Source of the DNA: an uncultured delta proteobacterium
GTDB lineage: Bacteria; Desulfobacterota; Desulfomonilia; Desulfomonilales; Desulfomonilaceae
Reading direction: 5' to 3'
DNA length: 64,000 nucleotides
Assembly: GCA_963789265.1 (NCBI GenBank)
Contig: CAWBKB010000007.1
Location: forward strand, 224,001-288,000
Made by a program: the position numbers and the translations under genes. Positions 4,046 to 9,175 of this stretch are shown piece by piece. The notes under the pieces were generated by a model. That model did not search any database. It was not told the origin of the DNA and saw only the letters and a program-made list of their open reading frames with translations. Within the stretch, counting starts at the first letter, position 1, and every line of letters begins with the position of its first letter.

Positions 4046-4112
4046 CGGGGCGCATGCCATTCCATCCTGCGGTTCCTCGCATACGCTGGGTGTCATGTTT
4101 TCCAATGAATCA

Positions 4113-4140
4113 TTGACGCGTTGCCTGTCTATGATACAAT
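4113..4140 (+). promoter_or_regulatory. Candidate sigma70 promoter for the capsid-toxin operon
   Basis: TTGACG (4113) - 16 nt - TACAAT (4135), with an extended -10 TG at 4132. Confidence 0.45.
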
Positions 4141-4356: not shown

Positions 4357-5574
4357 ATGGGTGAAACTGCTTTCGATTTCATGAAAATCTGGACCCAAGG
4401 CGACCAGGAATCGGAATTCAAGCTCAAGAGCGTATTGCTCGACGGATTGGATTCCGTGGTCCAAGCACAGGGCGATGTGCTCTCAAAAATCCGAGTGGAT
4501 CGCTCGATAGCCACTCCTGTGGTTCGCTGGATGGAAGAAAGGGGTTATCCTTCTGCTGTCACTACCCAATTGACGGAAAAAACTATGGTCTTTAGCGGCC
4601 TACTTTTCGGTCGGAGTGTCAATGCAGACTCAATCCGCAAGGTGATCCGAGCAGGGACCATTCTCGAACGTCCGCGAGATGGCTGCCAAGTGAAGATTTC
4701 ATCGCTCGACGGGCTTTCGGCCGCGGTGACGGCATACGGCAACACCAGTTTGGCCGATGATCCGGCACCTGTCGCTTGGGATGTCATTTCCGAGGTATGG
4801 TCTGACTTTCGAGATGCTTCCGGGCCCCGATCGCTTGACAGGAAATCCCGCGAGGTCGGCACACAGATATTCGCCGAGACATTTGAGATTCCCAAAACCA
4901 GGAAGAATACCAAGTACGAAATCATTGAATTTGAATCAGAGCATCAGATTCTCGCACTGATTGCCAAGCTCAGGCGTCAACTCGCGTATGCCATACTCAG
5001 ATCCCGGCCTTTCCATGACGGATCGCAATTCGTATGGGGGAACAAGACCGAAGAGCCGACCCTATGCGGTCTCTGCACTTGGCCGGTTGTAACTTACGAT
5101 GAAATTCCCAATCCGAATGTGTACGTCAACAAAAACGGGCAGGCTCTTACCAAGACTGATCTGGACAATCTTGTCCGCGGGCTTTGGCTTGACGAGCATG
5201 CGGACTACAACAAGGGCGACTGGTGGATCGCCTGTCATCCTGCCGTCCACCAATTCATCCAGGACTTTGACATTTGCTATCGACGAATCGAGAAAAAAGA
5301 CAAAACTGTCGGTTTTCATGTAGATGAATTCCATTCCAAGATCGGCAAAACCTTTCCCATCCTATCCGAGCCGTTTATGCGGCCCGGCGTGCTGATCGCG
5401 GTGAATTTCAAGGCCTTCAAATATGGCTATTATGCTAACGATTCTCTGGAACGCCAGGAGATTCCCACTCAGGGCCGATATCAACGCTGGCTTATTTCCT
5501 TCCAAACGTACGGCGTGGTAGCTCGCAATCCCAGGGCCAATATCGGCATGATCTACGGACTGCCGGTCAGTTAG
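4357..5574 (+). CDS. Phage-type major capsid protein, SU10/DUF5309-like (HK97 fold)
   Basis: 405 aa. Motif order W.EE..., TQIFAETFEI..T, E.EHQI....KL.RQL..AIL, ..GFHVDEF.S..G...I....M..G...., GVVARNP.A.....GL matches SU10-type capsids. Recognised from memory, not by search. Confidence 0.7.
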   Translation: MGETAFDFMKIWTQGDQESEFKLKSVLLDGLDSVVQAQGDVLSKIRVDRSIATPVVRWMEERGYPSAVTTQLTEKTMVFSGLLFGRSVNADSIRKVIRAGTILERPRDGCQVKISSLDGLSAAVTAYGNTSLADDPAPVAWDVISEVWSDFRDASGPRSLDRKSREVGTQIFAETFEIPKTRKNTKYEIIEFESEHQILALIAKLRRQLAYAILRSRPFHDGSQFVWGNKTEEPTLCGLCTWPVVTYDEIPNPNVYVNKNGQALTKTDLDNLVRGLWLDEHADYNKGDWWIACHPAVHQFIQDFDICYRRIEKKDKTVGFHVDEFHSKIGKTFPILSEPFMRPGVLIAVNFKAFKYGYYANDSLERQEIPTQGRYQRWLISFQTYGVVARNPRANIGMIYGLPVS

Positions 5575-5698
5575 TTCAAATAAGCTAAACCCCGTTAATT
5601 ATCAAATATCTGCGTTAAATCAACTCCATAACTACTTTTTGTCTTATCCGCTTCACGTGTGGTTTCACGTTTTCCATTTGATGAAAGGAGAATAATGC

Positions 5699-6622
5699 AT
5701 GATCGAAACCGAGGACCAACGGCGCTGGTGGTTCGCCACTCACCCGGAGTTTAGCTGGAGCCGTCGAGGTATAAGAGGTGACAACAAGGTAGATCCGGCG
5801 GAAGTCGATCAATATGTAAACAGGGCACTCAAGTACGAAAGCGGGCCTGTCGGGGAGCTGCTGAAATCGGTGAAGAAGCATTTTGGTACGGAAGCCTACC
5901 CCAACGAGCATGACAAATTAGCCGACAACCGTGGTACTGATTCGTCGTCCCAGCAGCCGAAGCAACCTCAGGCAACGATTGGACCACCCGAACCGCCCGG
6001 CCTTAGTGATCGTGCTCGATATGTTTTGGACATTGTGTGTCCCGGCCTAACCAAGGCGTATGATAGGTGGCGAACGGGCTATTACAACGCATATCCGTGG
6101 GCCCCAGGTCCTGTTTACGATGCACTTGGCGATTTGATGAGTCTGGTGCCCATCGGCCTTGCGAAAATTCAAGCCACCCTGGCGAAGGCAGTAAACCCGG
6201 CCGAGATTGCTGCTTTACAGAATGCTCGCCAAGAGTTACTTAAAATCTGGGATCACGCAAATTTCCCTCGAGGATGGGCCATTGAAGACCACTTGGGCCG
6301 GGATCTTCCCCGTACCTTCAAGGGTATTGACGGGTTTGAGAATGGAGTGGCCACGAGTATCAAGAGCATGGACCTCCGCCTAAACTCGTATCAAGATCCT
6401 GCCAAGATTCTCTCGCAAGGCCGGAAGTATGTTGATCAGGTGGCCAACTTTGACGGAGCGCGCATGGGAGACACCCGGATTAGCGCCGAACAGATAACCG
6501 AAAGGGTCTTACGCCTCGGTGTGCCCCCCGGTGCTACAAAGACCCAGCAGTCGGCTCTGAAAAGTCTGGTTGAATACGGTAAACAAAACGGCGTGAAAGT
6601 GGAGGTTATTAGAGTGCCATGA
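5699..6622 (+). CDS. Polymorphic toxin with C-terminal EC869/YPIII-type CdiA-CT endonuclease
   Basis: C-terminus FKGIDGFENGVATSIKSMDL...Y....I....RKYVD...F.G...G...I....I..R.L.L.VP.....Q...L.....YG...GVKVEV is the PD-(D/E)xK CdiA-CT pattern. GAAAGGAG RBS; N-terminus MIETEDQRRWWFATHPE. Confidence 0.8.
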   Translation: MIETEDQRRWWFATHPEFSWSRRGIRGDNKVDPAEVDQYVNRALKYESGPVGELLKSVKKHFGTEAYPNEHDKLADNRGTDSSSQQPKQPQATIGPPEPPGLSDRARYVLDIVCPGLTKAYDRWRTGYYNAYPWAPGPVYDALGDLMSLVPIGLAKIQATLAKAVNPAEIAALQNARQELLKIWDHANFPRGWAIEDHLGRDLPRTFKGIDGFENGVATSIKSMDLRLNSYQDPAKILSQGRKYVDQVANFDGARMGDTRISAEQITERVLRLGVPPGATKTQQSALKSLVEYGKQNGVKVEVIRVP

Positions 6623-7062
6623 AATGCGCAGGAGCATACAAAAGAGAGAAGAAGATATATCTTAACCCTAGTTCGAAAACGACGAAGGGCCTTTGGATCG
6701 GTACGTCTCCACGAATTATTTTTGATGAGACGGAACCTCCCTCAGTAAAAGGTAAATATCTAAAAGAAGTTCTGAGCCATTCCCAAGAGGGTGTACCTCA
6801 TCCTACAGACTGGGACAGCTTGCTCCAGAAGTTTCTGAAGGAGGTAGGCGTTAAATCATGGAGCAAATTCGCTAATACTGCCCTTTCATGCACATTTGAC
6901 CTTAAAGGAGATCAGTTGGAATTTCTTCCGTGGCGGAATTCGGGTCCCCGGGAGCACTACAATTTTGTGCCAATTAGGGATCGAAAAATGACCATTTCCT
7001 TCGATGCTTCCGATGAAGAGTTGGGCCTCTTTTTGGAAAAGGCGTTCGAGGCTTGTGAATAG
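6619..7062 (+). CDS. CdiI-like immunity protein (DUF1436-like)
   Basis: ATGA overlap with the toxin stop; 147 aa; ends ASDEELGLFLEKAFEAC, resembling EC869-type CdiI. Confidence 0.75.
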   Translation: MKCAGAYKREKKIYLNPSSKTTKGLWIGTSPRIIFDETEPPSVKGKYLKEVLSHSQEGVPHPTDWDSLLQKFLKEVGVKSWSKFANTALSCTFDLKGDQLEFLPWRNSGPREHYNFVPIRDRKMTISFDASDEELGLFLEKAFEACE

Positions 7063-7268: not shown

Positions 7269-7409
7269 TTTTATTCTCGTTCCCAGGCTCCGCCTGGGAA
7301 TGCCCGCCTTGGAGGCTCTGCCTCGCCTTTGACTGCTAAATGAAGGCGATTTGCGGGCAGAGCCCGCGAGATATGAGTTCCCAGGCAGAGCCTGGGAACC
7401 AGAATAAAA
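7269..7409. repeat. REP/MITE-like element, family A (CTCGTTCCCAGGCTC.GCCTGGGAA)
   Basis: 32-bp terminal inverted repeats (7269-7300 and 7378-7409) with 2 mismatches, each arm itself palindromic. Confidence 0.85.
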
Positions 7410-7701
7410 CGCAACAAAATCGAGGCAGCTAGAAACTCGTGGGATAAAAGCAAAGCAGGCGGATGAACTTAATGATATTCGCAGCGGCGGCAAAGGGAGC
7501 GGAGTGTGGACGGAAGAAGAATTGGAGAGGATCCGGAAGACTGGGAAATTCCCGGATGATGCAGTATGGCATCATGACCCTACAGTTGCCAATGCTCCTG
7601 ATAGGGCCGTCGATCAGAATGCAGTACATACAATGCGCGGAGGACCAAAAGCTCATTTGCGAGACGGTCACCACGGGAATTATCAGAATCCAAAAAAATA
7701 G
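7408..7701 (+). pseudogene. Orphan toxin tip, Tox-GHH-like HNH nuclease, lacking a start and N-terminus
   Basis: Frame opens after TAA 7405: ...GGKGSGVWTEEELERIRKTGKFPDDAVWHHDPTVANAPDRAVDQNAV...HLRDGHHGNYQN. This fits the WT..E....G...xHH...V...P..A.D..N...HL...H.GN pattern. Confidence 0.7.
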
Positions 7702-7763
7702 GTACATTGAAAGTATAAAATCATTTCATCGTTCGCATGAACGAATTGGAGGAAGCCGCAAAA

Positions 7764-8265
7764 ATGAAACCAGGACTTCTGGAAAGTGTGCTGATTCGGC
7801 GGTACCGGTAGACCTAAAATCTCTGTCAATAGCGCCTTGGTTCAACAATGCTGGAAGCTCGACGAACCCGATAATTCCTCCCTGTTGTACATGGGAATGA
7901 AATGGGAGGGACGCTTGGGCACCCGTTTTGCTGGCCTAAAGGGAATTTACGGTAATGCTTTCGGTGGATTCTTGGTCGGGAATTCCCTCAAGATTGCGGT
8001 ACTGCTGCCCCGCAAAGTGTGGGGTCTCTGGCGGATAGATGAGCTCCAAATGCTCCGTCCGGTGAGAATAGCTTTGGCAATTGATCCTGCCATTGATTTC
8101 TTTATGGACGCGGCCAACGTCTGGTATTACGGTCATAAGGAAGGTGAGCTGTACGTCTTCGATGCTGAGACGGATGAACTGGATTCGTTAGGGCCAATTG
8201 AACCGGCTCTGGACAGCCTTATCGATCAATGGGAAGAAGCCGGCCAACCGCTTCCGAAAAATTAG
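7764..8265 (+). CDS. Probable immunity protein for the orphan tip (SUKH/SMI1-like C-terminus), probable frameshift near 7790
   Basis: Lies directly after the orphan tip. ORF 7837-8265 ends GELYVFDAETDELDSLG. An upstream ATG at 7764 with GGAGG is in another frame. Confidence 0.5.
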
Positions 8266-8280
8266 ACCCGTACGGCGGCA

Positions 8281-8928
8281 TTGATGAGTCCGAGCCGGCG
8301 AAAAGCACGAACTGAAGCGATATTGAGGAAGGAAGGTATTCCCTTTCTTCCATCGCTTCCGTGCATTGAGTCTGAGGACGACACTGAATTGCGCAGTGCG
8401 GAAGAGGTCGGTCTGCGAATGCTCTGCCTGTTCAGTGTCATTGGCACCGCTTACGACCCGTCCGACGCATCATATAAACGGTATCTCAAGAAATACCGCC
8501 TCTGGGGCTACCTCACTCCTGATGAACTGTCTTTCATGTCCAATCCCGCGCCGGACCACAGGACTTGTATGATTTTGACTTGGCGGGTAGAAGCACTACT
8601 GGTGCTGATGTGGGCGGTGCGTCTGTTCAAAATGCTGCCATTCCCCACCCATCAAGTAGACAACCCAAAAATTATCGCCAAATTTCCCAGCTTTGACAAA
8701 TCTCCGCAGCCTTTTATCCTTAGCCTCAAACTGCGCCCTAAACCTACAATTCTGAATAACTCCGATCTCATATATCGGCTCCACTGGGCCACTACCCAAG
8801 CAAAGATAGAGGGACAGCCTCCGCCCGGCGGACTCGATCCGGAAATTGTCTATGAGTGGCATTATGCGATAAATTGGATTACAAAATATGATGATGCGGA
8901 TTGGGATGATGTCGCGACTGATACTTAG
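8281..8928 (+). CDS. DUF4272 family protein
   Basis: WRVEALLVLMWA...DLIYRLHWA...LD.EIVYEWHYAINWI...WDDVATDT. Confidence 0.85.
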   Translation: MMSPSRRKARTEAILRKEGIPFLPSLPCIESEDDTELRSAEEVGLRMLCLFSVIGTAYDPSDASYKRYLKKYRLWGYLTPDELSFMSNPAPDHRTCMILTWRVEALLVLMWAVRLFKMLPFPTHQVDNPKIIAKFPSFDKSPQPFILSLKLRPKPTILNNSDLIYRLHWATTQAKIEGQPPPGGLDPEIVYEWHYAINWITKYDDADWDDVATDT

Positions 8929-8971
8929 CCTCTACTTGCAATAATTGGGGCTACCATAAAGCGTTCCGAGG

Positions 8972-9053
8972 TTTTCTCGTTCCCAGGCTCCGCCTCGCCT
9001 TTGACTGCTAAATGAAGGCGATTTGCGGGCAGAGCCCGGGAACCAGAATAAAA
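8972..9053. repeat. Family A REP element, internally deleted direct copy of 7269-7409
   Basis: Shares cctttgactgctaaatgaaggcgatttgcgggcagagccc exactly, plus both ends. Confidence 0.85.
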
Positions 9054-9123
9054 AACGATCCCATAGCTGTCTCGAAGGGAAAAGAGACCAAACCTCCGTC
9101 CTAGTGAGACAGAAGGGAGAGCT

Positions 9124-9157
9124 AAACAATAGGGGCATCACGATGCCCCTATTGTTT
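9124..9157. terminator. Perfect 16-bp-stem hairpin, candidate bidirectional terminator
   Basis: aaacaataggggcatc-ac-gatgcccctattgttt, followed by T residues, between convergent units. Confidence 0.6.
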
Positions 9158-9175
9158 TTCTGATTTCAAATTAGG

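Follow-up and report, generated by a model that had tools for sequence, protein, structure and literature searches.

A 19-residue peptide at the N terminus of a small nuclease toxin from the Desulfomonilaceae is probably an address for virion loading: sequence comparisons suggest that it would direct toxins into particles predicted from a podophage-type gene cluster that resembles a gene transfer agent (GTA). We refer to this peptide as the tag. The window is the whole 64,000-nucleotide stretch of DNA that was analyzed; its features, and related ones elsewhere in the same genome, are collected in Table 1.

Organization of the toxin locus

In the window, an SU10-type capsid gene is followed by the toxin gene and then by a CdiI-family immunity gene. 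The N-terminal residues listed for the toxin in the initial annotation are all present in the 307-aa ORF. That annotation had also excluded a signal peptide, and as judged by hydropathy alone this is right: because the maximum 11-residue hydropathy within residues 1–70 is just 0.42, there is no signal-peptide h-region. The annotation had also listed no known secretion domain; residues 1–65/67 had no match in Pfam, PHROG or NCBIfam. An ESM Atlas search with residues 1–70 gave no usable match, PDB sequence searches with the module (A2) and with A4 gave none below E 0.36, and the modeled fold of the module matched viral structures at E 1.0 at best.

The proposed layout of N terminus, linker and nuclease stood as far as the linker (residues 66–104, rich in Pro, Asp, Ser and Gln) and the nuclease (residues 200–303) are concerned, and had to be amended between them, where about 90 residues (105–195) form a pre-toxin segment. 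This segment co-occurs with the EC869-type tip and includes a hydrophobic helix (147–165). Residues E196, D211, S220 and K222 align with the catalytic residues of EC869 CdiA-CT. A purine-rich site like the ribosome-binding site of the toxin gene was found 5' of nearly all relatives in the codon-comparison set. The tip itself aligned to PDB entries 4g6u and 4zqu with E 1.5e-13.

Orphan tip–immunity cassettes of the kind that accompany polymorphic toxins lie downstream (7438–8928). The orphan GHH tip is 60–69% identical to tips of tagged relatives, and the product of the next gene has 43–55% identity to products of genes behind the GHH toxins of loci L081 and L076. The frame break in that gene is either real or an assembly error. 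Short-read contigs from run X1, possibly the source sample, were identical to the window over 5158–5837 and agreed with it wherever compared, the break near 7766 lying outside their coverage.

Two further features of the region were observed. A palindromic repeat occurs at 7270–7405 and 8932–9160, with additional copies in related DNA, and is located at the truncation point of the orphan GHH gene. Upstream of the capsid operon, the C-terminal domain of the 1327–2313 product is nucleoside 2-deoxyribosyltransferase/TIR-like, and the gene is possibly one for defence.

Table 1. Features of the window and, where a contig is named, of the same genome (G000)
Feature	Position	Strand	Details
Promoter-like element: TTTTCCA-containing stretch, -35 TTGACG, extended -10 TACAAT	4096-4140	+	sequence pattern
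SU10-type major capsid paralog, toxin-linked clade	4357-5574	+	405 aa; PF17236, E 5.8e-28
Toxin-gene ribosome-binding site GAAAGGAG	5683-5690	+	sequence
Toxin ORF, EC869-type nuclease	5699-6622	+	307 aa, ATG at 5699
Core tag, residues 1-19 (Q7-R-R-W-W-F-A-T-H-P-E17)	5699-5755	+	predicted short helix 5-14
Optional helical hairpin, residues ~30-65	5786-5893	+	predicted helices 33-43 and 50-62, pLDDT ~80
Linker and pre-toxin segment of EC869-type members	5894-6283	+	residues 66-104 low-complexity, 105-195 pre-toxin
EC869-like restriction-endonuclease-fold DNase tip	6284-6622	+	PF21111 over residues 200-303, E 2.5e-22
CdiI-family immunity gene	6619-7062	+	PF07262, E 7.7e-06; 4-base overlap with toxin stop
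Orphan Tox-GHH tip, without tag or start	7438-7701	+	PF15636, E 5e-4
Immunity-like gene, as behind GHH toxins in relatives	7766-8265	+	frame broken near 5' end
DUF4272 gene, candidate second immunity gene	8266-8928	+	also behind a tag-bearing GHH toxin of L084
Second tagged toxin, AHH tip, stop codon in tag region, with Imm11 gene	G000:C7:112216-113625 (L001)	-	same genome as window
SU10-like podophage head-tail cluster	G000:C7:124783-146157 (L002, L003)		own genome
27-codon tag stub just beyond cluster end	G000:C7:146923-147003 (L003)		

An obligate peptide and an optional hairpin

The N-terminal module, initially taken to be constant as a whole, consists of two parts: residues 1–19 are obligate and constant, and the helical hairpin at about 30–65 is optional. 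Residues 7–17 were near-invariant among tagged toxins, partly by construction, as the genome loci were retrieved with the pattern QRRWWFAT; a word-based sequence set gave the same invariant tag columns. At the invariant residues, codon use was about even (Q7 36/33, F12 35/34 and H15 35/33 among 69 distinct copies), and this free synonymous variation indicates selection on the peptide. The hairpin is absent from a class of short forms and present in every module gene that lies directly behind a capsid gene and is long enough to judge. In the linkers, the recurring blocks HPAA..YD.YED.LD and GLE.DPHT..D..P..R..T.P appeared shuffled among different tips (for example, in L075, L080 and L089:3199).

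Tips behind the tag and their immunity genes

Among 67 homologs of residues 1–70, the window toxin included, 50 carried one of six toxin-associated Pfam tips: EC869-like (9), GHH (9), AHH (11), LHH (8), NucA/NucB (2) and DUF2380 (11). A toxin-family tip was likewise found in 38 of the 51 tagged genome-locus proteins of at least 180 aa (shorter and broken copies being left out) and in 60 of the 99 profile matches of at least 170 aa, adding REase-5, WHH, colicin/pyocin DNase-like, Ntox17 and Tlde1 tips. At least 11 tip classes thus stand behind one constant N terminus, the arrangement typical of polymorphic toxins, and nearly all identified tips are predicted DNases. The Tlde1 tip, whose target is peptidoglycan and not cytoplasmic, counts against the virion-loading reading.

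The next gene fits the tip: it encoded CdiI in 5 of 5 EC869 cases, Imm11 in 9 of 11 AHH cases, a HEAT protein in 4 of 5 DUF2380 cases and SUKH in 1 of 1, with downstream ORFs chosen mechanically, so that some misses reflect wrong picks or cut loci. The expectation of different tips behind the module, each with its immunity gene, was thereby borne out, the matching gene being typically present.

At E 0.001 the module profile matched 154 of 1.84 billion representatives; among the 150 listed matches, no protein was longer than 406 aa and every match began within the first 52 residues. A few tag carriers (P0170, P0202) lack a toxin-like tip. Nine other tagged proteins (L102:5001-5970, L100:2005-2971, L103:5001-5984, L065:5001-6165, P0183, P0186, P0160, P0116 and P0139) have tips with no Pfam or NCBIfam toxin match. 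Where the locus is known they are mostly followed by small unknown genes, and they are candidates for new toxin–immunity pairs.

Distribution of the module and the head-tail cluster

The module profile matched 23 of 70 Desulfomonilaceae genomes, with one to six matches in each, one of these genomes (G024) having just a weak 14-residue match; it matched 0 of 294 sampled genomes from other families of the phylum. A pattern scan of 185,579 genomes returned 53 loci, with titles naming Desulfomonilaceae, Desulfomonile, Syntrophaceae, Thermodesulfobacteriota, delta proteobacteria or simply 'bacterium'. A portal was present in 50 and a capsid in 47 of the 70 family genomes. Only one of the 16 genomes lacking both, G002, has the module, and it keeps a terminase and other cluster genes. 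The interchangeable tips had been expected in genomes with this capsid, and the module is indeed nested within the cluster-bearing genomes of the family, although the contingency counts overstate independence because the genomes are related. The particles do not need the module, since at least 25 genomes with a capsid are without it.

The cluster of the window's own genome comprises genes for portal, scaffold-like, capsid, tail fibre-like, NlpC/P60, M15 peptidase, adaptor, Kelch, nozzle-like and terminase proteins, of which the portal, capsid and adaptor are of SU10 type. Several of its genes are frameshifted, in reality or by assembly error, and several small ones have no family match. Across the family the cluster is kept in about 50 of 70 genomes, mostly as a single copy, and its gene order is conserved; it is patchily absent in four genera, and portal and capsid were found in 0 of 24 sister-family genomes. 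Its flanks are host genes, with a MetK/AhcY/GGDEF/AAA block, whole or in part, in five genomes of three genera; a PriA gene in one flank is also a host gene. A protein-family scan (E 1e-6) found no integrase among 84 of 115 flanking and internal ORFs, and neither these nor the 23 cluster proteins included any replication or integration gene. Cluster capsids grouped by genus in the capsid tree, and dN/dS was 0.02–0.04 for five pairs compared within genera and 0.08 for a single pair compared across genera. These traits are in keeping with the criteria for GTAs listed in PMC9662315, and the cluster, by its gene content, is a candidate GTA-like, domesticated element. The toxin genes lie inside the cluster, behind capsid paralogs or scattered outside the cluster, and several cassettes adjoin its portal or terminase genes.

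A capsid paralog ahead of toxin genes

The window capsid was modeled, at low confidence, with a fold like that of the SU10 and Vibrio phage VP1 capsids (pLDDT 59, pTM 0.46). Capsids directly ahead of toxins formed one clade with support 100/99, comprising 15 of 42 tree rows, in which one gene is entered twice and one member is not directly followed by a toxin; one cluster capsid also precedes a toxin. The paralogs are under purifying selection: dN/dS was 0.08–0.09 for four pairs and 0.25 for a pair from a single genome. Six of 21 diagnostic paralog positions fall in residues 1–29. In HK97-type shells, this N-arm region faces the interior. Two or more capsid matches were found in 17 of 22 module-bearing genomes versus 2 of 25 module-free capsid genomes, and four genomes (G010, G085, G092 and G093) have toxins with a single capsid match.

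The initial annotation had taken the module for a putative capsid-loading signal. In the window the toxin does lie directly behind a capsid gene, but this is not general: within 500 bp upstream, a capsid gene or what is left of one was found for 23 of the 52 long forms, 0 of the 18 short forms and 1 of the 6 stubs (classes assigned by hand from match ranges, one 1–69 match being placed among the short forms after inspection), leaving 29 of 52 long-form and all 18 short-form genes with no capsid directly upstream. Among metagenome loci, all long forms, a capsid gene or its remains stood upstream in 24 of 53 distinct loci, each nearer to the paralog; 9 duplicates and 17 loci with less than 600 bp upstream had been dropped, and both the metagenome and genome loci include kin and are not independent. 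Since the paralog is frequently broken or deleted, it is not needed in cis, which makes it more likely that the tag serves the main-cluster particle.

An encapsulin with a cargo-loading peptide was considered and rejected: the capsid belongs to PF17236 and is 70% identical to the capsid of the portal–terminase–tail cluster in its own genome, and encapsulins scored below SU10 capsids in the fold search.

A promoter-like element shared with the cluster

The promoter-like element upstream of the window capsid is common to other toxin genes and the start of the phage-like cluster. In 10 of 15 regions upstream of paralog capsids, a TTTTCCA-rich stretch, picked by eye, is joined to the -35/-10 box. 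With a matrix built from nine relatives, the second tagged toxin had the top-scoring site of the 6-Mb own genome (C7:113836), the window site (4096) ranked 2 and the portal site 9. When the -35 hexamer was removed, the second toxin kept rank 1, the window site ranked 9 and the portal site fell outside the top 60, indicating that part of the signal is a generic sigma-70 box. Of 10 cluster loci, 8 had a matrix match ahead of the portal. Among toxin genes that have no capsid beside them, such a match preceded 18 of 29, and 0 of 29 control stretches within genes had one. From these patterns we infer that the toxin operon and the particle genes may be co-regulated. In one genome, a LuxR-family regulator gene (L120:11521-12378) lies directly upstream of the portal promoter.

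A related peptide in phages

The motif that the initial annotation had ascribed to small phage proteins proved to be real. A viral scan for QRRWxxAxHP[ED] gave 28 loci, of which 13 encode an N-terminal peptide starting with MP, two belong to the tagged toxin family on a cluster contig, and the rest are chance-like. The MP-initial peptide matched phrog_1375 (function unknown). Among the neighbours scanned, portal, capsid or terminase genes adjoin it in 5 of 11 distinct cases. Its profile matched at least 1762 longer proteins, with the peptide N-terminal in 116 of the best 120; fusion partners (13 of 70 with a Pfam match) included SET, InPase, SNF2, HU, DnaJ, ferritin-like and peptidase domains. 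InPase is described as likely virion-packaged in PMC5512222. In gp48 of Streptomyces phage FlowerPower (YP_009838084.1), encoded in a late-gene block, the peptide is followed by a Lys/Ala-rich tail; another carrier, L166, lies amid non-structural genes.

The toxin tag scored 20.7–28.6 bits against the phage profile, compared with a maximum of 10.2 for shuffled sequences. The likeness extends over 19 columns (hhalign 96.9%), is partly circular because the phage seeds were selected by a tag-derived pattern, and could be convergent. For the phage peptide, ESM Atlas matches were limited to clusters without names and a weak lead (0.83) to DUF3008, and a PDB search found no solved structure. Scans of viral contigs that used a single sequence as query, either the module or the window capsid, gave no confirmed match; a 'structural protein' of Flavobacterium phage elemo (E 0.8–3) was rejected, since the matching stretch lies in a different reading frame from the annotated protein.

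Related sequences were seen at several other loci. The phrog_1375-like peptide, alone or fused, occurs at L158:2480-2602, L172:2480-2626, L174 and L179:9001-9219. The shorter motif QRRWWFA lies within a tail-completion (Neck1) protein (L149:9302-10189) and at the N terminus of a 221-aa Gly/Ala-rich protein encoded between the portal and a 1942-aa minor-head protein (L150:2633-3298).

A proposed role for the tag

In the mechanism that we propose for virion loading, the toxin operon would be switched on together with the particle genes, and the tag would bind an inner component during head assembly, which might be the capsid N-arm, scaffold, portal or DNA. The optional hairpin may add a second contact, with the paralogous capsid. 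The toxin would then be ejected via the short tail into a recipient cell, and a recipient with no matching immunity protein would be killed. A fuller version of this scheme is tentative, and we lean somewhat against it as a whole: the domesticated podophage particle might package DNA and also inject toxins like a syringe, the counterpart of a tailocin but built on a capsid, with the tag borrowed from an undescribed, very widespread phage virion-loading signal and the dedicated paralog building toxin-enriched heads recognized by the hairpin.

We think it unlikely that the toxins are instead bacteriocins, co-expressed with the cluster for release at lysis, whose Trp-rich peptide is an uptake box for the target cell. 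Colicins have translocation boxes, and the tagged toxins are short and soluble, carry nuclease tips, come with cognate immunity, are mostly encoded away from an intact capsid gene and share a promoter with a cluster whose products include NlpC/P60 and M15 peptidases, all of which would suit such a role. This reading nevertheless leaves unexplained why a capsid paralog is kept under purifying selection ahead of toxins and why a related peptide occurs on phage head-block proteins, and the short forms offer scant space for a receptor-binding domain.

Action on the producer itself seems quite improbable. Here the tag would tether a nuclease to the producer's packaging machinery, leading to fragmentation of host DNA for GTA-type packaging or to death of the producer, while immunity would protect non-producers. 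The preponderance of predicted DNases among the tips, the promoter common to toxins and cluster, and the many cassettes that adjoin terminase or portal genes could be read in this way. The absence of the module from so many capsid-bearing genomes argues against it, and conflict between cells better fits the diversity of tips, the multiple copies per genome, the orphan tips and the cell-wall-acting Tlde1.

That the cassettes are merely selfish hitch-hikers, with a constant 5' end serving mainly as recombination anchor and translation start and not for targeting, is very improbable: broken copies, capsid remnants and orphan tips do attest to frequent rearrangement, but synonymous sites vary freely while the amino acids are fixed, upstream sequences diverge except for the ribosome-binding site, and the module is strictly confined to cluster-bearing genomes.

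Comparison with known systems

In its tip and immunity families and its downstream orphan pairs, the locus resembles CdiA-CT/CdiI of E. coli EC869 and Yersinia YPIII (PDB 4g6u and 4zqu). It differs from contact-dependent inhibition (type Vb) in that the 307-aa toxin comes without CdiB, haemagglutinin repeats, a VENN/pre-toxin domain or a filamentous CdiA. With the phrog_1375-like peptide, the tag shares Q-R-R-W-x-x-A-x-H-P-E at positions 7–17 or 8–18 and portability onto unrelated domains, whereas the phage form begins M-P-F-K-S and continues W..TP..LP.

Like GTAs, as portrayed in PMC9662315, the family has an apparently endogenised, mostly one-copy head-tail cluster with flanks conserved across genera, a genus-wise capsid tree and low dN/dS. 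Unlike described GTAs, this cluster consists of SU10-type podophage genes, and packaging and transfer of host DNA are putative functions. Our search of open-access literature listings found no described GTA with polymorphic toxins and no paper on the tagged-toxin system; the toxin lists in supplements of PMC3482391 or of later surveys could include these proteins.

If the proposal is right, the system would offer a new toxin delivery route and a candidate new GTA lineage, and would suggest what hosts may gain by keeping such particles. It would also give a function to a common unannotated phage peptide, which could serve as a marker of virion cargo across thousands of uncultured phages.

Two systems come closest. 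The capsid-targeting sequence (CTS) of T4 internal proteins is, according to PMC3012670, a short N-terminal peptide sufficient in T4 for loading foreign proteins into the scaffolding core during encapsidation. The tag likewise is a short conserved N-terminal peptide on diverse proteins; its host, unlike that of the CTS, is a bacterium with a podophage-type cluster, and its putative cargo consists of predicted antibacterial toxins with immunity. For the MuF polymorphic toxins of temperate phages, PMC5576092 proposes head loading and injection with the DNA, and PMC3482391 names a 'phage DNA packaging system' toxin route; head-borne delivery, proposed from MuF fusions, stands in both as a hypothesis. 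MuF and tagged toxins alike combine a constant N terminus, a variable tip and an immunity gene with linkage to portal, terminase and capsid genes. The tagged toxins, by contrast, have no MuF domain in Pfam, PHROG or NCBIfam, a separate capsid paralog is in one operon with the toxin, the toxin genes are scattered beyond the cluster, and their element looks host-domesticated and not like a temperate phage. The putative cargo signal is a 19-residue peptide, and the predicted carrier looks like a particle that its hosts have kept. The tagged toxins resemble both MuF toxins and the T4 CTS in their proposed working, yet they are neither.
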